A stretch of DNA of 64,000 bases from a virus (IMGVR_UViG_3300021420_000016:64001-128000); one strand, 5' to 3'; counted from the first letter of the stretch, positions 4,065 through 17,150 are shown. Made by a program: numbers and translations. Notes: a model not told the origin generated them from the letters alone.

Positions 4065-4527
4065 GTCCGGTCCGCGAGCGCGGGGGCGACGGGTCTTCAG
4101 CGGGAAGGTGCAGCTCTGCGAGCAGGTCCGGTCCGCGAGCGCGGGGGCGACGGGTGTGGGTACTCTGCGCGGGTTCAGCACAGGTTGTCCGGTTCGCGAG
4201 CGCGGGGGCGACGGGATTACGGTGCGATGGAAGCCGAAACCTTCAACGTCCGGTCCGCGAGCGCGGGGGCGACGGGTGCCCTCTCGCGACAGAGGTCCTC
4301 AGCACAGCGCGTCCGGTCCGCGAGCGCGGGGGCGACGGGGGAGTGCACCCGGAATGGCCCGCGCCAAGCGCGTCCGGTCCGCGAGCGCGGGGGCGACGGG
4401 GCGCCGAACTGCGAATTCGGTAGGGGCGTGTGGTCCGGTCCGCGAGCACGGGGGGGGCGACGGTGCCTCAGTCCAGCGCCGCCGCCGATGAAGCGGGCGG
4501 TCCGGTCCGCGGGCGCGGGGGATCCGG
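4065..4527 (+). CRISPR. CRISPR array, 8 repeats / 7 spacers, type I-E-like repeat GTCCGGTCCGCGAGCGCGGGGGCGACGG(G)
   Basis: Repeats start at 4065, 4126, 4187, 4248, 4311, 4372, 4433, 4500; mostly 61-nt period; distal repeats degenerate. Confidence 0.97.
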
Positions 4528-4901: not shown

Positions 4902-5043
4902 CCGTGAGCAGGGATTCACGGTACTAGCTGCAGGTGAGGACCGGTGGGTTCCCGTCGACTTCGAGGGACTGGCCCTGATGGTCCGGCCGGCCCGGAGCGG
5001 CGCTCCCCCGGCCGTTTCGGATGGCCCTATGCAAGTCCGATAA
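4845..5043 (+). pseudogene. cas2: type I-E cas2, 3' half
   Basis: GSALMVIA...REQGF...WVPVDFEGLALMVRP in a different frame, without its N-terminus. Confidence 0.8.
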
Positions 5044-5060
5044 TACATGTTATCGTTGGT
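5033..5060. other. dif-like tyrosine-recombinase site (11-6-11)
   Basis: AAGTCCGATAA-TACATG-TTATCGTTGGT with CGATAA/TTATCG inverted arms. Confidence 0.6.
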
Positions 5061-5063
5061 GTC

Positions 5064-5348
5064 ATGAGTAGCAGATCAGCAGGCCCCAGCGGCGCCTACA
5101 CATCTGGTGATGGCAAGCGGAAATCCTCCATGGGTCACGCCCGTCACGCCTGGACGTGCCCCTGTGGCAAGACCGTCCGGGGCAACGGCGGCCGGGCGTC
5201 TCACCGCCGCGCCTGCGACATCTGGGCTGAGGAAGAACTAGCCCGGCTGAAGCGAATGCTCGCCGATGTTCCAGCCGCACAGTATGAGGTGCGGCGTCAA
5301 TGGGAGGCCCGGCGAGACCACCTGAAGGAAAGGCTTGGCCATGACTGA
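5064..5348 (+). CDS. small putative Zn-binding protein
   Basis: CPCG...HRRAC; overlaps recombinase start. Confidence 0.5.
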   Translation: MSSRSAGPSGAYTSGDGKRKSSMGHARHAWTCPCGKTVRGNGGRASHRRACDIWAEEELARLKRMLADVPAAQYEVRRQWEARRDHLKERLGHD

Positions 5349-6560: not shown

Positions 6561-6632
6561 GCGTAAAAGGGAAGGCGCGGCCGGGCACCCTCGGAGTGTG
6601 TCCGGCCGCGCCCGTTTCCCGCGTTTTTACGC
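6561..6632. terminator. long hairpin between convergent recombinase and TROVE genes
   Basis: GCGTAAAA..GGCGCGGCCGGGCAC / GTGTCCGGCCGCGCC..TTTTACGC. Confidence 0.6.
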
Positions 6633-8315
6633 GGCCCGTTCGGCCGATGGCAACAGCCACGGCCAGGTCGCGTCGTGTGAGGCCTCCAGAATGGGGATCA
6701 GGCGGAAGGCGTTGTCGGTAAGCCCGCCCATGGTGTGCCGGTTCCCGCCACCCGAAGGCAGTCCCCCAGTCTTGTACCCGCCGAAGTTCCACAGGTACAC
6801 CGGCACGTGCCGCGGGATCAGGTCATCAATCCTGGTCGACGGCATGCCGCCCGCGAAGTGACAGTTCGACGGCAGGTACCCCGGGGAGGTCTGCTCGTCG
6901 GTGACGATCACCACCCGGTCGTGGTAACCGGCGCGGAAATGCTGCCGCACCGCCGTGGGGATGTCGGTCCCCCACTGCCCCGTGGTGAGCCGCTCCACCA
7001 GCTTGAGCACCGACTCGCCCTGGGTGAACCGCACGGCGGCGTTCACGCCGCGGCCGGTGTCCTGGCCCCAGAACTCCACCAGGTCGGCGTGGGCGGCGCG
7101 CAGGGCGATGGCTGCGGCGAACACGGCCGCCCCGTCGGCCCAGGACATGTCGGAGTGCTCGGACATGTTCTGGTGCCACATCGACGGCGACCGGTCCACC
7201 AGCACCAGCGTGCGGCCCGCCAGCGCGGGCACGTTCGCCAGCGAGTGGCCGAGGCCCTGCTCCAGCGGCCAGCCCCACCGCAGCGACGGGGCGTGCCGGT
7301 AGGCGGCGAGGAACCGGAACGGGAACAGCCGCGACCTGGCCACCCGGTCGGGGTCAGCCAGTTTCGCCGCGACCTCCGCCGCCACCGAGTCCGGGACGCC
7401 GGCCTGGTCGAAGTTCCGCAGGTTCTTCGCCAGCGCGCCCAGGCCCATCATCGGGATCGCCGCAGTCCACGCCTCGCGGGTCATCGGGCCCTGCAGCCAC
7501 CCGGCGAGGGCCTCCCACGTCATCCCCGCATCACGCAGATCCTGAGTTGCCTCCGGCCGGTTCAGCCACGCACGCCGTGCACCCTCCGGCATGGCCATCA
7601 GGGCGTGCCGGCGGCGGATCGTCGCCAGCACCTCCGGGACCGGGTTGCCCCGGTCGTGGCGCCGCTCGATCGCATACCGGTAAAGTGCTTCGCGCCACGT
7701 GCCGTACGCCCTGCGGTGATACCGCGGGTTGACGAGTTCGATAACGTCACCGAATCGCACTGCCGCCTCGTCGGTGTCGTACTTCAGCAGGGCGAACTCG
7801 TTGTAGAGGCGGTGGATCCCGTCGGCGAGGCCCCGCTTGAGCCCGATCGGCATCTTCCGGCCGTAGTTCGCCAGCCAGTAGGCGGTCAGCTCCCCCGGCT
7901 CGTCGGCGCGCTGCAGCACCGAGTCCACCACCGGCCGCGGGAACGTGGCGACGCCCACTTCCCGGCCCGTGCCGGCCTCGTCGCGGCGCGCCCAGGTGAA
8001 CTCCGCCGCGCCGATCACCGGCGCCAGGCGCAGGTTCCCGTCGCCGCGCAGCCACCCGAGCAGGCCGGCCGTCCATGCGGGGTCGGCGGCCGCCATCTCG
8101 CGGACGAGGTGACGGTAGCGCTTCACCCGGGCGTCGCGGCCCTCGTGGAACGCCCTCTCCCCCGGCAGGTTGCACGCCGCCAGGAGGAACAACTCGGACT
8201 GACCCTCGCGGGCATACCCGGGGGCACCCAAGGCGGTACGGCCGGACGGCCCCGGGCCGCTCACGACCGGGCTGGACGCGGCGGCACGGACAGGACCGCG
8301 GTTGAACTTGCTCAT
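6627..8315 (-). CDS. rsr: Ro60/Rsr-like TROVE + vWA RNA-binding protein
   Basis: VLQRADEPGE, MTWEAL, KNLRNFDQAG, SRLFPFRFLAAY; MIDAS VDRSPSM and IVTDEQ; start at MSKFN with upstream RBS. Confidence 0.92.
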   Translation of the reverse strand: MSKFNRGPVRAAASSPVVSGPGPSGRTALGAPGYAREGQSELFLLAACNLPGERAFHEGRDARVKRYRHLVREMAAADPAWTAGLLGWLRGDGNLRLAPVIGAAEFTWARRDEAGTGREVGVATFPRPVVDSVLQRADEPGELTAYWLANYGRKMPIGLKRGLADGIHRLYNEFALLKYDTDEAAVRFGDVIELVNPRYHRRAYGTWREALYRYAIERRHDRGNPVPEVLATIRRRHALMAMPEGARRAWLNRPEATQDLRDAGMTWEALAGWLQGPMTREAWTAAIPMMGLGALAKNLRNFDQAGVPDSVAAEVAAKLADPDRVARSRLFPFRFLAAYRHAPSLRWGWPLEQGLGHSLANVPALAGRTLVLVDRSPSMWHQNMSEHSDMSWADGAAVFAAAIALRAAHADLVEFWGQDTGRGVNAAVRFTQGESVLKLVERLTTGQWGTDIPTAVRQHFRAGYHDRVVIVTDEQTSPGYLPSNCHFAGGMPSTRIDDLIPRHVPVYLWNFGGYKTGGLPSGGGNRHTMGGLTDNAFRLIPILEASHDATWPWLLPSAERAA

Positions 8316-8358
8316 CCTCGCACGCCCCCTTTCGCTGGGGCTCCAGGCGGGAGAGGTA

Positions 8359-8524
8359 ACCTTCATGAATGACATGCCCGACAACGAATCGGCCCACGGG
8401 ACATAAGCGCTCTGCCAGTTGAGCTACGCCCCCAAAGTGGAGGCGACAGGACTTGAACCTGTAACCACTCGATCCACAATCGAAGTACCGCGAACCTGCA
8501 CTTCGGGCATGCCTTCATGAAGTT
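8359..8524 (-). ncRNA. Y RNA 1 (YrlA-like, permuted tRNA-like domain)
   Basis: CCCGAAGTGCAGG...GCCGATTCGTTGTCGGG closing stem; internal order T-arm, closed acceptor-like hairpin, D-arm. Confidence 0.85.
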
Positions 8525-8529
8525 GTACC

Positions 8530-8672
8530 CCCCCCCGACAACGAATCGGCGACGGTAACCGGGGCCGGATTCGAACCGGCGGCCTCCGCCCTTCCGGGCG
8601 GCGCTCTACCAACTGAGCTACCTCGCAAAATGGGTTGGCTGCGAGAAGTAACCGTTGCCTGCACTTCGGGGA
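8530..8672 (-). ncRNA. Y RNA 2 (D-arm, GGAA-capped arm, T-arm)
   Basis: Same terminal motifs; TAGCTCAGTTGGTAGAGC, CCGCCC-GGAA-GGGCGG, GGTTCGAATCC. Confidence 0.8.
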
Positions 8673-8697
8673 GAAGTGCTTTATTTAGTTTATGTCC

Positions 8698-8806
8698 TTC
8701 CCGACAACGGATCGGCGGCGGCTGCGCGGGATTCGAACCCGCAACCTTCAGCTACTGTGACTGATTTCGATCCAATTCGAAGTAGCCGTCTCCTGCACTT
8801 CGGGAA
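8698..8806 (-). ncRNA. Y RNA 3 (T-arm only)
   Basis: Same terminal motifs plus TACTTCG; GCGGGTTCGAATCCCGC. Confidence 0.78.
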
Positions 8807-8889
8807 AGTATTCCCAGAGCCTAGCGAACCGGCAATGCGTGGCGCATCCCGTTTTCGCGTGACCCTGATCACAGCGCGAGCACCCTTTG

Positions 8890-8961
8890 AGTCGGCGGCG
8901 GGAATTGAACCCGCGTGCGCAGCTTTGCAGGCTGCTACCTCTGCCACTCGGCCACGCCGAC
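8890..8961 (-). tRNA. tRNA-Cys(GCA)
   Basis: cloverleaf, loop CT-GCA-AA. Confidence 0.92.
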
Positions 8962-8963
8962 AC

Positions 8964-9039
8964 GGTGAGCGAGGCGGGATTCGAACCCGCAGCCTTCTTC
9001 TTAGGAGGAAGTTGCTCCATCCCGTTGAGCTACCCGCTC
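8964..9039 (-). tRNA. tRNA-Arg(CCT)
   Basis: loop CT-CCT-AA. Confidence 0.9.
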
Positions 9040-9108
9040 GCGGGAACGCCTGGCGACCGCTATGCGTGATCCTTTACCCCCACCGTTTGAAGCTGGGTCC
9101 AGGCGTTC

Positions 9109-9182
9109 GGCGTCCCCGGCGTGACTCGAACACGCGCGCACGGCTCCGGAGGCCACAGCTCTATCCACTGAGCTACGGGGAC
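9109..9182 (-). tRNA. tRNA-Arg(CCG)
   Basis: loop CT-CCG-GA. Confidence 0.9.
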
Positions 9183-9183
9183 T

Positions 9184-9268
9184 TGGTGGCAGGTCCAGGG
9201 TTCGAACCTGGGTAGGCTGAGCCGGCGGTTTTACAGACCGCTCCCTTTGGCCGCTCGGGCAACCTGCC
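9184..9268 (-). tRNA. tRNA-Tyr(GTA)
   Basis: loop CT-GTA-AA, long variable arm, CCA. Confidence 0.95.
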
Positions 9269-9269
9269 T

Positions 9270-9347
9270 TGGGGAGCCCGGCCGGATTTGAACCGGCGAC
9301 GACACGGACCACAACCGTGTGTTCTGCCTGGCTGAACTACAGGCTCC
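9270..9347 (-). tRNA. tRNA-His(GTG)
   Basis: loop TT-GTG-GT, G-1, CCA. Confidence 0.93.
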
Positions 9348-9348
9348 A

Positions 9349-9423
9349 TGGTGGGTGATGATGGGATCGAACCATCGGCCTCTGTCGTGTGAAGGCAGCG
9401 CTCTGCCACTGAGCTAAACACCC
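9349..9423 (-). tRNA. tRNA-Val(CAC)
   Basis: loop TT-CAC-AC, CCA. Confidence 0.9.
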
Positions 9424-9511
9424 CTGCCAGGTCTTGATTTAAGTTCCGGGAATGCTTATTGTTTCCTTGCTACTAAAACCCTTAGCAAGTAGCACGGAAA
9501 GGGACACCTCA

Positions 9512-9655
9512 ATGGGCAGGAACAAAATCGTTGCAACTTGCGCCGCAATCTTTTTCGCGGCCGGGATGGCCGCCCCGGTTATCGCCGCAGCCACACCCGC
9601 CGTGCACGCCGTGGCAGACGGCAGTGGCGGCCCCGACATGTACCACCACAGCTGA
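9512..9655 (+). CDS. 47-aa secreted peptide precursor
   Basis: RBS GGAAAGGGA; signal-peptide-like N-terminus, short polar tail GSGGPDMYHHS. Confidence 0.65.
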   Translation: MGRNKIVATCAAIFFAAGMAAPVIAAATPAVHAVADGSGGPDMYHHS

Positions 9656-9716
9656 CCGTCCCCCAGGCCGTCTGCGGTCCCGAGCCCCCGGCGGGGCCGC
9701 AGACCCCTAAAATAAG

Positions 9717-9789
9717 TGCGCTCGGAGGGACTCGAACCCCCAACAAACTGCTCCGTAGGCAGTTGCTCTATCCGTTGAGCTACGGGCGC
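9717..9789 (-). tRNA. tRNA-Arg(ACG)
   Basis: loop CT-ACG-GA. Confidence 0.93.
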
Positions 9790-9800
9790 ATGGTATCGCG

Positions 9801-9873
9801 TGGGCGTACCTGGGATCGAACCAGGGATCCTCTGCCGTGTCGAGACAGCGCTCTGCCGCTGAGCTACACGCCC
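9801..9873 (-). tRNA. tRNA-Val(GAC), C33
   Basis: loop TC-GAC-AC. Confidence 0.88.
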
Positions 9874-10382
9874 ACCGTTACTTCCAGGCCAATCTCGGCG
9901 GCCTGCCCAGCGATCTTCTCCGGCAGTTCCCAGCCGAGCCGGGCCAGCCGCTGCACTGCCTGCCGGGCACCATTCCCGGCCCGGCCCGCTAGGTTCACGT
10001 TCTCCAGTGCCTCGTTCATCATGTCCTCCATCCCCCGGTCGGTCACCATGAACGGAATCACGTTGAACAGCACGACCGCCGCCGCAGCGCCGGTGAGAGT
10101 CCACCGGCCGGTGGATGGCTGGACGCCGATCTCGCAATGGATATGCGCCTCGCCGCAATGCTCGGCGCAGCCCCGCTTGTCCCACTCCTTGCCCGGACGG
10201 GGAGGCCGCGGCTCCGCGTTGCTGTCGGTGAGCCGGCACAACTCCCTGATCACGCTCAGGTAAGAAGAGTCGACCCGCAGCACCAGTTGCGGCGTCGCCC
10301 GGGTGAGGTTGTCCTTCCGGTGGATGCGGCCCTGCATGTCCAAGATGGCCGCCATCCAGGCCAGCTTCTCGGCAGGGACCAT
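9864..10382 (-). CDS. LAGLIDADG-like homing endonuclease-related protein (degenerate motif)
   Basis: LAWMAAILDMQGRI...LVLRV...VIRELCRL. Confidence 0.55.
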   Translation of the reverse strand: MVPAEKLAWMAAILDMQGRIHRKDNLTRATPQLVLRVDSSYLSVIRELCRLTDSNAEPRPPRPGKEWDKRGCAEHCGEAHIHCEIGVQPSTGRWTLTGAAAAVVLFNVIPFMVTDRGMEDMMNEALENVNLAGRAGNGARQAVQRLARLGWELPEKIAGQAAEIGLEVTVGV

Positions 10383-10408
10383 AAACCTCAGCCTAGCGCC
10401 GTGATACG

Positions 10409-10483
10409 CGGGACAGGCGGGATTCGAACCCGCGGCCTCCACCTTGACAGGGTGGCGAGCACTCCTGACTGCTCCACAGTCCC
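10409..10483 (-). tRNA. tRNA-Asp(GTC)
   Basis: loop CT-GTC-AA. Confidence 0.93.
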
Positions 10484-10598
10484 ATGATTCCGGTCGCGGC
10501 CCCGCAGGCTATCGCGCCTCACCTGCGGTCAGCGGACGGCGAACCCGCCTATGTTTGCCCACCGGAACTGCACCAGCCAGATGCAGGTGTTGGAAAAC

Positions 10599-10673
10599 GG
10601 CTCCCGAGGAAGGGCTCGAACCTTCAACCTGCCGGTTAACAGCCGGACGCTCTGCCGATTGAGCTACCCGGGA
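10599..10673 (-). tRNA. tRNA-Asn(GTT)
   Basis: loop CT-GTT-AA. Confidence 0.93.
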
Positions 10674-10814
10674 ATGAGAAAGAAGCCCCGCCTACACGGA
10701 GCGCCCCGACGGCACTCCCGCCCTTATGCTGCCGTCGCAGCCCCATGGGCACTTGGTCCGCGGCCCGCGCGCCCTGCCTTCGGGTCAAGCCCGTACATCC
10801 TCAGCGGAACTTCG

Positions 10815-10888
10815 TAGCGGGGGGCGGATTTGAACCGCCGTCCTCTGGGTTATGAGCCCAGCGAGCTACCGAACTGCTCCACCCCGCG
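10815..10888 (-). tRNA. tRNA-fMet(CAT)
   Basis: 5' CGCGGGG, C1 unpaired, GGG/CCC anticodon stem. Confidence 0.92.
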
Positions 10889-10976
10889 TCGCATGTGAGA
10901 TTTCCCGGCCACCTGGCCAACTCAGGTACCCACAACGGCCTCTCTACGGCTGACACTGATCACGCTACCACATTCG

Positions 10977-11052
10977 TGGTGGCTCCAGTCAGATTCGAAC
11001 TGACGCCGTCTCCTTGAAAGGGAGGTGACCTGGGCCGCTAGTCGATGGAGTC
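10977..11052 (-). tRNA. tRNA-Glu(TTC)
   Basis: loop CT-TTC-AA, CCA. Confidence 0.88.
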
Positions 11053-11053
11053 G

Positions 11054-11126
11054 TATCCCGGGAGGGATTCGAACCCCCGCCGCCACCTTGAGAGAGTGGC
11101 ATCCTAGGCCGCTAGACGACCGGGAC
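11054..11126 (-). tRNA. tRNA-Glu(CTC)
   Basis: loop CT-CTC-AA. Confidence 0.92.
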
Positions 11127-11138
11127 ATGTACTTTACG

Positions 11139-11211
11139 TGCGCCGCCGCGGACTCGAACCGCGAGCCGTCTCCTTAGAGGGGAGCCGCTCTATCCATTGA
11201 GCTAGCGGCGC
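11139..11211 (-). tRNA. tRNA-Arg(TCT), C33
   Basis: loop CC-TCT-AA, A20 in D-loop. Confidence 0.85.
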
Positions 11212-11371
11212 TGGCCGCGTCTCCGATTTCCCGGCGGACGGCTTGCTTCTCGCGTGCACGCTGAGCGCGCCGGCCGATCTCCTTCATACCGGGCTTGTAA
11301 CCCGGGTCGTGACCGGGGCAGCACCAATTCTGGTCGTGGGCACTGCGGGCCCGGCCGAGCATCCTTGCCAT
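11174..11371 (-). CDS. small basic Cys-containing protein, similar to N-terminus of 55181..55636
   Basis: MARMLGR..CC..RRAQRAREK vs MAKMLGR..CRC..RRARKRAEA; upstream GGAGG. Confidence 0.5.
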   Translation of the reverse strand: MARMLGRARSAHDQNWCCPGHDPGYKPGMKEIGRRAQRAREKQAVRREIGDAASAASSMDRAAPL

Positions 11372-11394
11372 GGGGCGCATCCTCCGGTTAGGGG

Positions 11395-11895
11395 CTATGC
11401 CGCTTCGCGCAGAGTGCGCATTCCGCGAGTGCCAGGCGTCTCACCCCGGCGAACCCGGCCATCGTATTTGGCTTGGCGGCATAGACCGCAGCGGCATCCG
11501 CGACCGTATTCCGCTTGAGAACCGTGGCCCTTTCGCTGAAGTTGCGGCCACGGGCGTTCGACACGCTGCTCGGCTAGGTCAGTGACCGTTTTCCGGTGAT
11601 GATGCGCGCCACATAGAACTTGGCACCCTTCAAGCTCCTCAAGGAACTTCACTTCTGCGATCGACCATAGTCTCGCTAGGTCGATCTCTTTGGCGCGCCA
11701 ATCAATGTGGTCGATCTCCAGGTCGGCGGTGCCGCCGCACTCGGCACAGGCGCCGCCTAGCAGCGCGATGGCTCGATCCCGTCGTTCGTGGTAGCGCCGG
11801 AGCATGTAATCGCGCATGTAGCCGTTGTAGCAGTCGCGACATCTCTTGCCGTTGGCATACTCCCTGACGGGCCTGCCGCACTGGTTGCAACACAT
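11395..11895 (-). CDS. HNH endonuclease
   Basis: CAECG..LEIDHID...CQVLCGAHH; TATAAT 6 nt before ATG (leaderless). Confidence 0.88.
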   Translation of the reverse strand: MCCNQCGRPVREYANGKRCRDCYNGYMRDYMLRRYHERRDRAIALLGGACAECGGTADLEIDHIDWRAKEIDLARLWSIAEVKFLEELEGCQVLCGAHHHRKTVTDLAEQRVERPWPQLQRKGHGSQAEYGRGCRCGLCRQAKYDGRVRRGETPGTRGMRTLREAA

Positions 11896-11910
11896 GTTCG
11901 AATTATATGC

Positions 11911-11986
11911 GGTGCCCCGCCTCGGATTCGAACCGAGAACCCGCGGATTAAAAGTCCGCTGCTCTAAGCCGTTGAGCTAGCAGGGC
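11911..11986 (-). tRNA. tRNA-Lys(TTT)
   Basis: loop CT-TTT-AA. Confidence 0.93.
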
Positions 11987-12043
11987 GTGGGGCTGGGTAT
12001 TCGTACGACCTGTTTCTCGCGCATCGTTTCCTCCTTTCCGGGG

Positions 12044-12120
12044 GGTAGGCCGGGCGGGGGTCGAACCCGCACATCTTCCGCTTATAAGGCGGCTGCCGTC
12101 ACCCTGTTGGCCACCGGCCT
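12044..12120 (-). tRNA. tRNA-Ile(TAT)
   Basis: loop CT-TAT-AA, discriminator A. Confidence 0.85.
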
Positions 12121-12126
12121 CCTGAG

Positions 12127-12198
12127 TAGCGAGAGGGGATTCTGCCACCCCGGCCTCTCCGTTATGGGCGGAGCGCTCTCCTTCTGAGCTATCCCGCT
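12127..12198 (-). tRNA. tRNA(CAT) Met/Ile2, C33, aberrant T-loop
   Basis: loop CC-CAT-AA; T-arm GGGGTGGCAGAATCCCC lacks TTC. Confidence 0.7.
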
Positions 12199-12213
12199 GG
12201 GTCCCCGTGGGGG

Positions 12214-12289
12214 TGGTGGGCCTAGGTGCTTTTGGGACACCGACCTCCCGGTTATCAGCCGGACGCTCTTACCTCTGAGCTACAGGCCC
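12214..12289 (-). tRNA. tRNA-Ile(GAT), aberrant T-loop
   Basis: loop CT-GAT-AA; T-arm GGTGTCCCAAAAGCACC; CCA. Confidence 0.75.
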
Positions 12290-12290
12290 T

Positions 12291-12382
12291 TGGAGGAGGG
12301 TGCGAGATTCGAACTCGCGAGACGAGTCCCCCCGTCTAGCCGTTTTCGAGACGGTGCCGTAGGCCACTCCGGTCAACCCTCC
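12291..12382 (-). tRNA. tRNA-Ser(CGA)
   Basis: loop CT-CGA-AA, long variable arm, CCA. Confidence 0.88.
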
Positions 12383-12387
12383 ACAAG

Positions 12388-12476
12388 CGGAGTGACAAGG
12401 ATTCGAACCTTGGAGGGGCTTGCGCCCCAACGGCGTTAGCAGCGCCGCGCCATAGGCCAGACTAGGCGACCACCCC
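12388..12476 (-). tRNA. tRNA-Ser(GCT)
   Basis: loop CT-GCT-AA, long variable arm. Confidence 0.92.
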
Positions 12477-12554
12477 ATTGTGCGGTGGGCGGGGACAGGC
12501 GGACCCGCTGGTACGCGCAGACCAGCATGGCCGTGATCTCCCCGCCTCACTGCG

Positions 12555-12630
12555 TAGCGCTCGTCGGATTCGAACCGACACTGTCGCGGACCTGAACCGC
12601 GCGCCTCCTACCATGTTGGGCTAGAGCGCC
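12555..12630 (-). tRNA. tRNA-Leu(CAG), short variable region
   Basis: loop TT-CAG-GT. Confidence 0.85.
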
Positions 12631-12735
12631 TGGCCAGGGATCAGGCCGGTGCCGTCTGGCTCACGCTGCCTTCCCGGCACCGCCGGCTCCGCAGTCAGCG
12701 TGATGGGGATAACCGTGTGGCGCCTGATCCCTTAG

Positions 12736-12808
12736 AGCGGACGGCCGGGATCGAACCGGCGACTTCAACCTTGGCAAGGTTGCGCTCTGCCAACTGAGCC
12801 ACGCCCGC
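12736..12808 (-). tRNA. tRNA-Gly(GCC)
   Basis: loop TT-GCC-AA. Confidence 0.95.
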
Positions 12809-12818
12809 ATGTATTTCG

Positions 12819-12890
12819 AGCGGAAGACGGGGATCGAACCCGCAACCCCGACCTTGGGAAGGTCGTGCTCTGCCATTGAGCCACTTCCGC
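12819..12890 (-). tRNA. tRNA-Gly(CCC)
   Basis: loop TT-CCC-AA. Confidence 0.94.
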
Positions 12891-12891
12891 A

Positions 12892-12967
12892 TGGAGCCCG
12901 ACCGGGGAATTGAACCCCGCCTACGGCCTTACCAAGGCCGGGTGCTTACCGCTATCACTAGCCGGGC
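12892..12967 (-). tRNA. tRNA-Thr(GGT)
   Basis: loop TT-GGT-AA, CCA. Confidence 0.9.
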
Positions 12968-12971
12968 GAAG

Positions 12972-13042
12972 CTGGGGGAGCTGGGGTCGAACCAACGTTC
13001 CAGGGACCAAAGCCCCGTGTCCTGCCTTTAGACGATCCCCCA
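12972..13042 (-). tRNA. tRNA-Gln(TTG)
   Basis: loop CT-TTG-GT. Confidence 0.9.
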
Positions 13043-13043
13043 T

Positions 13044-13121
13044 TGGAGCCGGCCATCGGGCTTGAACCGATCACCTGCCGCTTACAGGGCGGCTGCTCTG
13101 CCTGCGATGAGCTAGGCCGGC
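13044..13121 (-). tRNA. tRNA-Thr(TGT), C33
   Basis: loop CC-TGT-AA, CCA. Confidence 0.88.
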
Positions 13122-13187
13122 GTGATCCTGGCAGGCACCGCAGGCGACCTTTGGCGCCGCAGTGAGGCCTGCCCTGCCAAGGAATCG

Positions 13188-13262
13188 TGTGCTCGGAGGG
13201 ACTTGAACCCTCAACATCCGGCACCTCGGGCCGACCTCTCTGCCACATTGGAGTACGAGCAC
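13188..13262 (-). tRNA. tRNA-Leu(GAG), C33, short variable region
   Basis: loop CC-GAG-GT. Confidence 0.85.
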
Positions 13263-13335
13263 TCAGTCAGTTCTTAGGCCAGCCGTATGGTGGGTATGAC
13301 TCATCCCAACGATACCGATCGCAGGGAGCGCCCCC

Positions 13336-13572
13336 GTGGATGAGCCCAATCTCACTCTCCCCGAAGCCCAGGAGCAACTACCGGCGATCTGCCAGCGGTT
13401 CGCTGCCGACCCAGGAACCCGGGATGCCGTTGTAGTGACAGACGCCGATGGCCCAGTGGCCGTGATCATCCCCTGGCGGAGGTACCGGGCCTGGGCCGGC
13501 CTCGGGGGGGAGACCCTGATGCCCGTTCACCAAAACGGCCGCCTGATAGCGGTTGTCCGGGACTGCGGCTGA
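13336..13572 (+). CDS. Phd/YefM-like orphan antitoxin-fold protein
   Basis: LTLPEAQEQLPAIC...AVVVT..GPVAVIIP. Confidence 0.5.
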   Translation: MDEPNLTLPEAQEQLPAICQRFAADPGTRDAVVVTDADGPVAVIIPWRRYRAWAGLGGETLMPVHQNGRLIAVVRDCG

Positions 13573-13575
13573 CTG

Positions 13576-13650
13576 GGAGCCCGATGCCGGGGTCGAACCG
13601 GCGACCTCCGCGGTACGAAGGCGGCGCTCTACCGACTGAGCTAACCGGGC
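13576..13650 (-). tRNA. tRNA-Thr(CGT)
   Basis: loop TT-CGT-AC, C31-C39 mismatch. Confidence 0.85.
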
Positions 13651-13802
13651 GTGGCTGCCCCGCGTACGCCGGTTCGGCGGGGCGCACCAGGGCGGGAGAA
13701 TCCGGGGCCGTGCGATCAGCCGCCCAAGATCGCCTCGATCTTCCATGTTCCCGGTGATCAACTCCGGGTGGGCCCCTGCGCCAGTGCCGGCCAGTTACCT
13801 TC

Positions 13803-14477
13803 TTAGGGATTCCTGGCCGCTGATGCAACCGGCGCTGCTCCCGGAGCTGGGGTCGAACCAACTACGGGACTTACCGCTTCCGGGGCTGGACTCGAACCAG
13901 CGAGGACAGGGGCCAGAACCCTGCTGGGGACGCCGCCGCCCCACCCGGAATCAAGTCGGCCCGAACGGATAGCCGTACGGATCCGATGACAATTAGCGCA
14001 AACTATGTCACACTTCGCGATCTCAGCAAGGATTCTGCTCCATGACCAGCGGGTAAGCACGGCACTTATGTTGCCCAGCTTGTCATCCCCATCCCTGTGG
14101 TCGTAATCCATAACACAAGGGGGGAACCGGCCACCGCAATCAGCGCACGGGACGTCTTTCAATGCGTCGAGTCGCTGCCGGTTCGCCTCGTATCGTTGCC
14201 GGTTGCGGTCCAGATATACCTGCTTGTTGTCGTTGTACCACCGTTGCTTCGCCGCCCGCTGTGCTTCTTTGTTACGGCCGGCACCGGTCCCTTTCTTCCA
14301 CCGGACCCCGAGAAAATGTGAAGTATCCAGGCCCAGCTCTGCGGCTACCGCCCTGATTCTGTGGTATGAACTACCTCCGTCAGCCTTAAGTCCAAGCGCT
14401 CGGGCTACCTGGCCCCAAGTCGTGGATTGAGTGATGGCATCAGCTAGATCGCCGTCGGACCATGACCTGGTTCTCAT
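13803..14477 (-). CDS. HNH endonuclease inserted in tRNA-Gln
   Basis: PCADCG...MDYDHRD...KCDIVCANCHRIRT; TATACT 7 nt before ATG. Confidence 0.88.
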   Translation of the reverse strand: MRTRSWSDGDLADAITQSTTWGQVARALGLKADGGSSYHRIRAVAAELGLDTSHFLGVRWKKGTGAGRNKEAQRAAKQRWYNDNKQVYLDRNRQRYEANRQRLDALKDVPCADCGGRFPPCVMDYDHRDGDDKLGNISAVLTRWSWSRILAEIAKCDIVCANCHRIRTAIRSGRLDSGWGGGVPSRVLAPVLAGSSPAPEAVSPVVGSTPAPGAAPVASAARNP

Positions 14478-14561
14478 GCCTGCCAGTATACGGCAAGGTG
14501 TAGGGCTCTAGTCGCTTCGTCTGATCCAGAGTCAGGTGTCCTGCCATTGGACGATCCGGGA
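13838..14561 (-). pseudogene. split tRNA-Gln(CTG): 5' part 14520-14561, 3' part 13838-13866
   Basis: TCCCGGA acceptor strand pairs with TCCGGGA about 650 bp downstream; halves join into a complete cloverleaf. Confidence 0.8.
13877..13950 (-). tRNA. tRNA-Gln(CTG), atypical D-arm, inside the HNH insertion
   Basis: TTCCGGG/CCCGGAA acceptor, loop TT-CTG-GC, GGTTCGAGTCC. Confidence 0.7.
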
Positions 14562-14565
14562 TTAG

Positions 14566-14647
14566 TGCGGGACGAGGGATTTGAACCCTCACGCCCTCTC
14601 GGGCACACGGACTTGAGCCGTGCGTGTCTGCGTTTCACCAGCCCCGC
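14566..14647 (-). tRNA. tRNA-Leu(CAA)
   Basis: loop CT-CAA-GT, long variable arm. Confidence 0.9.
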
Positions 14648-14653
14648 TGGCCT

Positions 14654-15442
14654 TCAAAACGCCTTCCGCATTTCCTCGATCAGGGCCAGCGATTGCGGCG
14701 CGTTCAGGGCTATGCTTTGCAGCCAATCCGCTTGCGCGCGGAACCGGTCCAGGTCTGCGGTGTGGTCCTGGTACCTGTCTTCTCTCTCGGAGAAGACCAT
14801 CGGGGGCAGTTCGCCGGCGAAATCCAGGATCGTGAAGTTCGGCGCCGGGGAGGAGATCAGCGCCGCGCGGAACGGGACTACCCGCACGATGGCGCCTTCG
14901 CCGGCAAGGTTCAGGATGTGCCCGAGCTGGTCGGCCATGATGTCGGCGCCGGGGTGGCGCTGCAGGACCGCCTCATCCAGGAGGAACGTTGTGGGGATCT
15001 TCCCCACCAGTACCTGCCGGGCTTCACGCACCTGCGGGTACGGCCGGCCGGCGGCCTGGTCGTAGTTTGCGGTGCGCAGCAGCGCGGGGATTACGTCGCG
15101 GGCGAGGCAGACGAGGGACTCGGCGTTTTGCTCCAGGCTGAGGTACAGGACCGACCGGTCGTTGCTGATCGGCTCTATCCTCCACGGGTCTTTCTCCCGG
15201 CCGCGTCTCACGGCGGCAAGGAGCTCCGCCGCGGTGGCCTGGTCGGCGCCGTAGACGAGGCACATGGAGCGGACTGTGCGCCCGTCGGCGAGCCGGTCGC
15301 CGGTTTCGGTGCGGCTGACCGTGGCCATGGAGCACAGCAGTTCGGCTGCGGCCTGCTCGATCGTCATGCCCGCTGCGGTGCGCAGTTCGCGCAGGCGGGC
15401 GGCGAGTTTCATCTGGGCTACGGCGGGGCTGTCACTTGCCAT
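14654..15442 (-). CDS. XRE HTH + DUF5753-type regulator
   Basis: LAARLRELRTAAGMTIEQAA..SMATVSRTETG; IPALLRTANY; LDEAVL. Confidence 0.82.
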   Translation of the reverse strand: MASDSPAVAQMKLAARLRELRTAAGMTIEQAAAELLCSMATVSRTETGDRLADGRTVRSMCLVYGADQATAAELLAAVRRGREKDPWRIEPISNDRSVLYLSLEQNAESLVCLARDVIPALLRTANYDQAAGRPYPQVREARQVLVGKIPTTFLLDEAVLQRHPGADIMADQLGHILNLAGEGAIVRVVPFRAALISSPAPNFTILDFAGELPPMVFSEREDRYQDHTADLDRFRAQADWLQSIALNAPQSLALIEEMRKAF

Positions 15443-15487
15443 GTGGCACATATACCCTGCACCGGGCATTTTGCACGTAACCTATCG

Positions 15488-15559
15488 TGCGCCGCCAGGG
15501 GATCGAACCCCGGACCCGCCGATTAAGAGTCGGCTGCTCTACCACTGAGCTAGCAGCGC
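15488..15559 (-). tRNA. tRNA-Lys(CTT)
   Basis: loop CT-CTT-AA. Confidence 0.95.
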
Positions 15560-15560
15560 C

Positions 15561-15634
15561 TGGAGCGGGTGAAGGGGATCGAACCCTCATGACCAGCTTG
15601 GAGGGCTGGGGCTCTGCCATTGAGCTACGCCCGC
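15561..15634 (-). tRNA. tRNA-Gly(TCC), C33
   Basis: loop CC-TCC-AA, CCA. Confidence 0.9.
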
Positions 15635-15643
15635 ATTGACTTT

Positions 15644-15720
15644 TGGTGGCCACTCTCCGAGTCGAACGGAGGCCCTCTCACTTTTCAGGCGAGCGCTCAT
15701 ACCAACTGAGCTAAGCGGCC
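15644..15720 (-). tRNA. tRNA-Phe(GAA)
   Basis: loop CT-GAA-AA, CCA. Confidence 0.92.
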
Positions 15721-15724
15721 ATAG

Positions 15725-15796
15725 TCGGGATGGTCCGAACCGAACGGACGCCCTTCTGCTCCCAAAGCAGACGCTCTTCCACTGAGCTACACCCCG
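15725..15796 (-). tRNA. tRNA-Pro(TGG)
   Basis: loop TT-TGG-GA. Confidence 0.88.
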
Positions 15797-15801
15797 AATC
15801 G

Positions 15802-15876
15802 TCGGGACAGACCGATTTGAACGGCCGGCCTCCGGCTCCCCGAGCCGGCGCTCTAACCAAGCTGAGCTATGCCCCG
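15802..15876 (-). tRNA. tRNA-Pro(GGG), C33
   Basis: loop TC-GGG-GA. Confidence 0.88.
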
Positions 15877-16062
15877 GTTACGCCACGTGTTTCCAGGTGC
15901 GCCCACACCGAATATCGCTGATCGTGGCCTTGTGAACTCCCAGCAGTTTGGCAAGGGCAATCCCCCGACGCATGAGCCGTTCGCGGCCAGCCACTTGGCT
16001 CTCCTGGCAGCGACCCACTCCCGCATGTACTTTCGCTGCCGCTCAGGATCGGCATAAGGCAT
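15853..16062 (-). pseudogene. HNH endonuclease N-terminal remnant
   Basis: MPYADPERQRKYMREWVAARRAKWL..GSCV resembles the start of 11395..11895; no HNH core. Confidence 0.55.
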
Positions 16063-16104
16063 GCGAACGGTATATCGCAGTTAGCCCTTTGACCTGTACT
16101 CTTG

Positions 16105-16182
16105 TGGTCGGGATGGGGTGATTCGAACACCCGGCCTCCTCGTCCCGAACGAGGCGCGCTGACCAAGCTGCGCCACATCCCG
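16105..16182 (-). tRNA. tRNA-Pro(CGG)
   Basis: loop TT-CGG-GA, CCA. Confidence 0.94.
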
Positions 16183-16414
16183 TTTGCCGGTTCCCTCCCA
16201 GGGCGTGCCGCCAGTGCAGGCAGAGAACGTTCCGTCCCCTTGCCGGAAAGAGGGACCCAGGCCCCTCGCGCGTCCGGGCGGGGAGACTTCCCCGGGGGCG
16301 GACTGTGATGCGCATTGCACGGCGGTCCCTGGTTGCCGGATCAGCCCTCCGCAGTTTGCTGTGTGGTACGTCACTTCTGCGAGCGATATCCGGCCCGGCT
16401 AGCGGGGACCGTAG

Positions 16415-16487
16415 TGGAGTTACAGGGACTCGAACCCTGGGCCTCCGCGTTGCGGGCGCGGCGCTCTCCCGGCTGAGCTATAACCCC
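16415..16487 (-). tRNA. tRNA-Ala(CGC), C33
   Basis: G3:U70, loop CC-CGC-AA. Confidence 0.9.
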
Positions 16488-16585
16488 TCAAGCGTGGTGG
16501 CCTCCGGTTGTTTGTCCCTTATTTAGCAGGGAGAGCCACGTATTCCCCGGAGGTTGCCCCCGGCGCCAGTCCGGGACCCCCCTTG

Positions 16586-16658
16586 TGGAGCTACGCGGAT
16601 TCGAACCGCGGACCCTCTCGATGCCATCGAGATGCTCTGCCAACTGAGCTATAACCCC
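16586..16658 (-). tRNA. tRNA-Ala(GGC)
   Basis: G3:U70, loop AT-GGC-AT. Confidence 0.93.
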
Positions 16659-16845
16659 ATCTGGGCGGTTAGAACTGCCGCTCCCCCACTGGCCCAGAGT
16701 GGGCCGGCGGGATCATCGACGGGCAGAGACCACCCACGCGGGACTTATGGCCGCCCGCCTTTTCGTTTGGTGCTCACGCTATGCAAGTTTCAACCACCGG
16801 GCGGGTTCACCAGCCTTACCTCTCGGTCGCGCTGGTGCCGCTTCG

Positions 16846-16918
16846 CCCGGACGGAGGGACTCGAACCCTCAACCAACGGTTTTGGAGACCGTCACTCTTC
16901 CAATTGAGCTACGTCCGA
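16846..16918 (-). tRNA. tRNA-Trp(CCA)
   Basis: loop CT-CCA-AA. Confidence 0.92.
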
Positions 16919-16938: not shown

Positions 16939-16976
16939 AAAAAAACCGCCCCTTTCCGGCTTCCCGGGGGGCGGTT
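16939..16976 (-). terminator. intrinsic terminator (attenuator) just upstream of the first tRNA
   Basis: AACCGCCCC..CCGG-GAAG-CCGG..GGGGCGG followed by T7. Confidence 0.85.
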
Positions 16977-16993
16977 CCTGGTTCGCTTGCCTG

Positions 16994-17116
16994 CTATCCA
17001 GAAACCTCCCTGCCGGGGGTGCGCCCGTTGCCGTCGCTCAGGGCAGCCGCCGGCTGCGAGAACGGGTACGCGGATGCGTGCCGTTCGTCGCGCTCGATGA
17101 CTTGCCAGAGTTTCAC
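16994..17116 (-). CDS. putative 40-aa attenuation leader peptide
   Basis: GGAAGG RBS, GTG start; MKLWQVIERDERHASAYPFSQPAAALSDGNGRTPGREVSG; 3' end complementary to terminator left arm. Confidence 0.7.
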   Translation of the reverse strand: MKLWQVIERDERHASAYPFSQPAAALSDGNGRTPGREVSG

Positions 17117-17150
17117 GGGTACTGCCTTCCGGTTGGTGCTGCTGGTATCA

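Follow-up and report, generated by a model that had tools for sequence, protein, structure and literature searches.

Cytidine at position 33 in a fifth of the tRNAs of a GC-rich soil actinophage, and its relation to genomic GC content

Uridine 33 (U33), the U-turn uridine of the anticodon loop of transfer RNA (tRNA), is among the most conserved nucleotides in biology. Why, then, does a virus carry cytidine (C33) in its place in eight tRNAs of a single array? The array lies in the window analysed here, a stretch of 64,000 nucleotides (nt) that covers positions 64001-128000 of one virus record of 154,048 bp (IMGVR_UViG_3300021420_000016; 68% guanine plus cytosine, GC). The source virus is an uncultured, GC-rich soil actinophage. 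An initial annotation of the window had taken the recurrence of the change as a sign of selection, either for evasion of anticodon nucleases or for C-to-U editing, rather than of decay. In the following, the identity of the eight genes is established, position 33 is compared with that of cellular and other phage tRNAs, and the possible causes are weighed.

ARAGORN places all of its 38 tRNA calls in the window on the minus strand (8557-16918), and the Rfam model RF00005 adds two genes (12127-12198 and 12217-12289) that escaped ARAGORN because of their aberrant T-loops. These two are neighbours, a CAT tRNA with C33 (T-loop GGCAGAA, 42.2 bits) and a tRNA-Ile(GAT) (T-loop CCCAAAA, 53.8 bits), and their orthologues in relatives have normal or near-normal T-loops. 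One ARAGORN call (8557-8627), which has a 6-nt loop and lies beside a sub-threshold match to the Y RNA YrlA, is probably a tRNA-like Y-RNA module; once it is set aside, 39 real tRNA genes for all 20 amino acids remain in a single orientation (8889-16918, minus strand; ARAGORN and Rfam). This is the number that the initial annotation had given, and its eight C33 loops are recovered to the letter, seven from ARAGORN and the second CAT tRNA from Rfam only; C33 thus accounts for 8 of 39-40 tRNAs. Its description of mostly intact cloverleaves also agrees with the structures: seven are canonical, and the second CAT tRNA has the aberrant T-loop.

The eight genes, all on the minus strand, are spread over most of the array. 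tRNA-Val(GAC) (9800-9873; loop TC GAC AC, C33 at 9842; Rfam 53.2 bits) has no stem mismatches and A73, and tRNA-Arg(TCT) (11138-11211; CC TCT AA, C33 at 11179) scores 57.8 bits. The second CAT tRNA (12127-12198; CC CAT AA, with CCCATAA at 12162-12168), either Ile2-like or an elongator tRNA-Met, is located between Ile-GAT and Ile-TAT; the initiator-like CAT tRNA (10814-10888) retains U33. tRNA-Thr(TGT) (13044-13121; CC TGT AA, C33 at 13087; 49.4 bits) is free of stem mismatches and has an encoded CCA, and tRNA-Leu(GAG) (13187-13262; CC GAG GT, C33 at 13228; 46.9 bits) is of class-I shape with A73. They are followed by tRNA-Gly(TCC) (15561-15634; CC TCC AA, C33 at 15603; 56.7 bits), with U73 and an encoded CCA, and by two further genes without stem mismatches, tRNA-Pro(GGG) (15801-15876; TC GGG GA, C33 at 15842; 57.8 bits) and tRNA-Ala(CGC) (16414-16487; CC CGC AA, C33 at 16455), which at 64.5 bits is among the best-scoring of the array and keeps the alanine identity pair G3:U70. 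Each of the eight has a 7-nt anticodon loop closed by a 5-bp stem (0-2 stem mismatches in the ARAGORN structures, the CAT tRNA being assessed by eye), so that the register of position 33 is secure. A shifted reading of the loop, with U34 as the turn nucleotide, was considered and ruled out, since seven bases lie between five clean pairs in every case. All eight are full-length matches to RF00005 (model positions 1-71; 42.2-64.5 bits against a gathering score of 29 bits), and all eight have C where bacterial-type tRNAs have their invariant U33.

C33 in this array is neither a chance event nor a host habit. Streptomyces and other Actinomycetes serve as proxies for the phage's own host: U33 is present in 68 of the 69 tRNAs of the complete Streptomyces manipurensis chromosome, the exception being a 40.7-bit oddity in a chromosome arm, and in 67/67 tRNAs from 25 published-genome loci across the class Actinomycetes, which include 21/21 tRNA-Val(GAC) and 14/14 tRNA-Val(CAC) genes (five loci from unpublished genomes, L289, L299, L308, L309 and L317, are excluded from all counts). 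C33 therefore does not occur in Actinomycetes at a frequency similar to that of the element; its excess in the window (8/40) holds against the Streptomyces chromosome (1/69; Fisher p = 0.0013) as well as against low-GC phage arrays (1/323; p = 9e-8). None of the seven C33 loops called by ARAGORN is identical to the Streptomyces loop of the same anticodon, and the second CAT tRNA reads, by eye, CC CAT AA against the host-type CT CAT AA; three C33 loops, those of tRNA-Arg(TCT) and tRNA-Gly(TCC) among them, deviate at position 33 alone. The U33 loops are identical to Streptomyces in 23 of 28 comparable cases, including the idiosyncratic AT GGC AT, and 23 of 36 comparable window loops match overall.

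Are the C33 genes nevertheless on their way out? Decaying, non-functional pseudo-tRNAs might be suspected because the phage tRNAs are in general loosely built: they score 42-66 bits, compared with mostly 52-80 for host-type tRNAs, they have on average 1.05 stem mismatches versus 0.22, relatives lack U8, T54 or T55 in a few genes, and the C33 CAT gene has its aberrant T-loop. However, the uncompensated loss of pairing or of invariants that marks a pseudogene is not found. In the 37 ARAGORN tRNAs with a 3-nt anticodon, seven of which are C33, U8, G53, T54, T55, C56, C61 and a purine at position 37 are each present in 37/37 (ARAGORN detection relies on the T-loop, so that the invariance of T54-C56 is partly ascertainment), and A58 in 36/37; position 33 in the same tRNAs is T in 30, C in seven and a purine in none. 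C33 tRNAs are no more mismatched than U33 tRNAs (means of 0.86 and 1.10 stem mismatches), and seven of the eight keep, besides the full cloverleaf, the remaining invariant nucleotides and identity elements, with discriminator bases in the Val, Gly, Pro and Leu tRNAs as expected from bacterial tRNA identity. A set of ten phage tRNA-Val(GAC) genes, of which eight are C33, has hardly any stem sequence in common, yet 15 of 21 base pairs are kept by two-sided compensatory changes. Decay is thus very improbable as an explanation of the set, and only the second CAT tRNA, owing to its T-loop, is structurally doubtful. The C33 tRNAs are presumably charged and used in translation, the identity pair of tRNA-Ala and the discriminator bases being indirect signs.

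An alignment search with TROVE, the domain of a gene next to the array, retrieved 78 viral and 80 metagenome loci; single-protein locus searches with the TROVE protein or a DUF6551 protein yielded no related loci, and in a megablast search of phages and plasmids the array produced short single-tRNA matches only. Two records carry arrays syntenic with this one, the order of the genes being identical from Trp to Arg-CCT: in G005 (locus L281), 6/34 tRNAs are C33, and in G008 (locus L012), 12/39. C33 is common to all three arrays in Val-GAC, in the second CAT tRNA and in Thr-TGT, the last despite fully different anticodon stems, and to two of the three in Ala-CGC and Leu-GAG, both shared with L012 (Leu-GAG is also C33 in the low-GC array L268). 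The orthologues of Arg-TCT in L281 and L012, those of Gly-TCC, and that of Pro-GGG in L012 have U33. Altogether, five C33 tRNAs are shared, and 13 others occur in a single phage each. In 24% of orthologue pairs the two genes have different bases at position 33; the figure is 26% at position 32 and ~46% at stem positions. Position 33 therefore acts as a site with two pyrimidine states that really turn over, with U still favoured. A metagenome fragment (L221) carries two near-identical tRNA-Val(GAC) genes (4199-4274 and 5006-5081), one with C33 and one with U33.

The frequency of C33 follows base composition. Among non-redundant TROVE-linked phage arrays, which are related to each other so that counts across them are not independent, C33 is found in 44/280 tRNAs at GC >= 0.60 and in 1/323 at GC < 0.56 (Fisher p = 8e-15), and its share rises with GC over the 26 arrays with at least nine tRNAs each (Spearman rho 0.66, p = 2.5e-4). 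The trend spans host phyla: mycobacteriophage Bxz1 has C33 in 2/30 tRNAs and Caulobacter phage CcrColossus (NC_019406, L319-L321) in 3/28, namely in Pro-CGG, Pro-GGG and Ile-GAT. The CcrColossus loops all read U32-C33, and so do both C33 loops of Bxz1. The change at position 33 is always from T to C, which is the direction of the mutation bias; GC at third codon positions (GC3) is roughly 0.8-0.95 in the phage's genes. Neither phage codon usage (Mann-Whitney p = 0.69) nor, in a hand count from the array table, the wobble base is related to C33 status.

The explanation that we favour, with confidence that is evenly balanced, is that the tRNAs work and that their change from U33 to C is nearly neutral and has been fixed by GC-biased mutation under weak phage-level selection. 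Phage tRNA genes would evolve fast, under purifying selection weaker than that on cellular tRNAs; GC-biased mutation would repeatedly replace T at position 33 by C; and C33, if cheap in decoding, could drift to fixation in some tRNAs and be lost again in others. The expected outcome is a pyrimidine-only position 33 with C in 18-31% of the tRNAs, as in the phage and in the syntenic arrays L281 and L012. In a few isoacceptors, chiefly tRNA-Val(GAC), whose C33 persists over deeply diverged phages, it may in addition have been positively kept because it alters a loop that is read by host enzymes, PIN/VapC-type nucleases or the synthase of N6-threonylcarbamoyladenosine (t6A) being candidates. Mutation bias and weak selection as the drivers are suggested by the GC trend over unrelated hosts, the T-to-C-only spectrum, the turnover and the differing C33 sets of relatives, by the missing link to codon usage, and by the general looseness of phage tRNAs, with their lower scores, more frequent mismatches and, in relatives, occasional loss of U8, T54 or T55. 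That cells under the same GC pressure keep U33 (68/69 and 67/67) supports the same account. Decoding appears to tolerate C33, since yeast tRNA-Leu(GAG) is naturally C33 and its change to U33 has a minor effect (PMC13492127).

Several observations weigh against so simple an account. Some high-GC arrays are without C33, L253 having 0/11 at GC 0.69, and the share of C at position 33 (~20%) is far below the GC3 of the phage's genes (roughly 85%), so that U must be favoured in most tRNAs. C33 is also not randomly spread but clustered by anticodon (permutation p = 0.017), and three orthologue triples are all-C33 where 0.3 would be expected (p = 0.004). The clustering is most evident in valine: Val-GAC is C33 in 7/9 related high-GC arrays (8/10 with Bxz1), the only C33 tRNAs of Bxz1 are Val-GAC and Val-CAC, both substrates of the toxin VapC52 (PMC13273310), and cellular Val-GAC and Val-CAC are C33 in 0/35. 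In the high-GC arrays, tRNAs on the VapC52-sensitive list are C33 in 18/58 cases versus 26/222 of the others (p = 9e-4, a post hoc comparison). Finally, if the inability of Escherichia coli TsaBCDE to place t6A on a U33C tRNA (PMC8887486) extends to actinomycetes, C33 in the ANN-decoding tRNAs (Arg-TCT, Thr-TGT and CAT) may carry a cost.

The valine observations lead to an alternative that is possible but distinctly less probable: C33 may have been selected because phage tRNAs that carry it are poorly cut by host anticodon-loop nucleases (PIN/VapC, HEPN/PrrC-like or others), so that the phage would translate on with its own resistant set while host tRNAs are depleted during infection. Phage tRNA escape from anticodon nucleases through loop changes has been published for cluster C1 mycobacteriophages (PMC10264068), and VapC52 of Mycobacterium tuberculosis, which cleaves the anticodon loops of tRNA-Val(GAC) and tRNA-Val(CAC), protects M. 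smegmatis from phage D29 (PMC13273310). Of the 161 phages of cluster C1, 144 have the Bxz1-type gene for Val-GAC and 142 that for Val-CAC, which are the C33 genes, and the supplement files them under 'mutations' (PMC10264068); the main text of that paper does not discuss position 33. Evasion is further favoured by the unlikeness of all eight loops to their Streptomyces counterparts and by the L221 fragment with its C33 and U33 copies of one Val-GAC gene. On the other hand, the enrichment on the VapC52 list is gone without valine (8/42, p = 0.21), no nuclease link is known for seven of the eight C33 tRNAs of the window, gamma-toxin cuts a U33C substrate normally (PMC2275089), and the VapC52 cut lies within the anticodon, so that a reading of position 33 by this toxin is conjecture. 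Close relatives carry different C33 sets, and the exclusive T-to-C change scales with GC across Caulobacter, Mycobacterium and soil phages, down to near absence in low-GC arrays. RNA-repair genes that would signal tRNA-cleavage pressure are also missing: a search of the phage genome found no RtcB and no Rnl2-type RNA ligase. A CCA-adding enzyme is absent as well. Evasion is plausible mainly for tRNA-Val. A bolder version, of nearly the same modest probability, would make C33 a counter-defence signature that actinophage tRNAs share in general and that has so far gone unrecognised; replacement of the U-turn uridine would blunt PIN/VapC-type or other nucleases at little decoding cost, with tRNA-Val as its oldest and most widespread case and an extension to at least a fifth of the tRNA set in the clade of the phage. 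Of the interpretation given in the initial annotation, the rejection of decay stands, as the invariants, the absence of purine-33, the mismatch counts and the compensatory changes in orthologues agree; selection for evading nucleases is not demonstrated for the eight tRNAs taken together, given the GC tracking, the differing sets, the turnover and the mildness of C33, which all fit a tolerated change driven by mutation.

Two further explanations concern the chemistry of the loop. C33 could act as an anti-determinant for host modifying enzymes such as the t6A37 synthase TsaBDE, and an altered modification state would then affect decoding speed or modification-dependent nucleases. This idea draws on the finding that U33C tRNAs are not t6A37-modified by E. 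coli TsaBCDE or yeast KEOPS (PMC8887486), and on the fact that Arg-TCT, Thr-TGT and the CAT tRNA decode ANN codons and offer the context C32, U36-A37-A38. It is nonetheless unlikely: five of the eight tRNAs do not use t6A, C33 is no commoner in ANN decoders (16/89) than overall (44/280; hand count from the array table), and the enzymatic data come from E. coli and yeast, from which the actinomycete TsaBDE may differ. C-to-U editing, the other cause that had been proposed, would mean that a cytidine deaminase turns C33 of the transcripts into U33 and that the mature tRNAs are canonical. Its one, indirect, attraction is that it would restore the consensus. We know of no description of C-to-U editing at position 33 of a bacterial tRNA; the phage genome contains no CMP/dCMP-type deaminase domain (PF00383), and C33 in phages of three unrelated host groups would call for such an activity in all of them. 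Editing is accordingly unsupported and extremely improbable. Two soil metatranscriptomes, whose libraries may contain DNA carry-over, hold exact contigs for 8518-8788, 14521-14816 and 16957-17132, and no C33 loop lies within these contigs.

The array and its relatives are a natural experiment on the dispensability of the U-turn uridine in bacterial translation: a nucleotide of such conservation is replaced in 18-31% of whole tRNA sets, in genes that compensatory evolution maintains. The cause suggested by the GC trend is a simple, population-genetic one, which would advise caution against reading every loop difference between phage and host as nuclease escape. At the same time, a defence toxin specific for Val has newly been described, and the recurrence of C33 in phage tRNA-Val coincides with it, which makes the escape hypothesis testable in cultured phages.

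Some features of the array and its surroundings lie apart from position 33. tRNA-Ile(TAT) (12044-12120) reads AUA, the rarest codon served by the array (~1/1000 in phage genes); it is kept in all three syntenic arrays and has no counterpart in the searched Streptomyces genome. tRNA-Leu(CAG) (12554-12630) and tRNA-Leu(GAG) (13187-13262) are 76-77 nt long with a 5-nt variable region, so that both have a class-I shape and lack the long variable arm seen in bacterial tRNA-Leu, and all three leucine tRNAs of L012 (3632-3705, 3960-4034 and 5019-5093) are likewise short. Short arms could affect recognition by leucyl-tRNA synthetase or by readers of the type-II arm, for example bacterial Schlafen nucleases. 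Inside the array, in the same orientation as the tRNAs, lies a regulator gene with HTH_31 and DUF5753 (14654-15469; Streptomyces-type XRE family). Besides the array, the window encodes a tyrosine integrase, DnaB, a replication initiator, an FtsK-like gene and a Ro60/TROVE gene.

The Ro60/TROVE gene (6627-8384; 585 amino acids; TROVE by Pfam and PHROG matches) and Y-RNA-like elements follow directly downstream of the array (window 6627-8800), the latter comprising a sub-threshold YrlA match at 8406-8469 and the tRNA-like element with the 6-nt loop at 8557-8627. The closest TROVE homologues include P0002, with 86% identity. Two complete phages of ~125 kb (G006 and G007, behind L004 and L006) encode TROVE proteins 59-64% identical to that of the window and have no tRNA genes at all; within this group, Ro60 is therefore not tied to an array of tRNA genes. 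Two TROVE-bearing Streptomyces plasmids (L001, L002) have no tRNAs within the fetched loci, and the cultured phages Kela and VanLee have only a few tRNAs near Ro and no arrays. In Streptomyces phage Kela (L282, 19157-21593), an annotated RNA ligase gene lies directly upstream of the Ro-like gene, and in Gordonia phage VanLee a tRNA-Arg(tct) adjoins Ro with a polynucleotide kinase nearby. These neighbours hint at a link between Ro and RNA repair, although the window phage itself is without RtcB or Rnl2.

How do the C33 tRNAs compare with known systems? Functional C33 is natural and conserved in the cytoplasmic initiator tRNA-Met of multicellular eukaryotes, where it affects recognition by the t6A enzyme (PMC8887486); there it is specific to the initiator, whereas the changes in the window are found in elongators and the initiator-like CAT tRNA keeps U33. 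tRNA-Leu(GAG) of Saccharomyces cerevisiae, a C33 elongator with the anticodon of one of the eight, works about as well as its U33 form (PMC13492127), but is a single non-essential eukaryotic gene, compared with a fifth of the tRNA set here. Published cases of phage tRNA 'escape' (van den Berg et al. 2023, PMC10264068; retron/PARIS, PMC11555353, PMC11464382) resemble the window in that a nuclease-read loop differs from that of the host; they lie at mapped cleavage or recognition sites of named nucleases, whereas the change in the window correlates with GC. The closest likeness is to the tRNA-Val genes of Bxz1 (NC_004687) and cluster C1. Bxz1 has C33 in 2/30 tRNAs, in contrast to 8/39 in the window and 12/39 in L012, its array is not syntenic, and it is absent from the tblastn matches to the TROVE protein of the window. 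Yet its tRNA-Val genes, too, belong to a large array encoded by a GC-rich actinophage; their loops read TC GAC AC and TC CAC AC, where hosts have CT or TT at positions 32-33, and the former is identical to the Val-GAC loop of the window.

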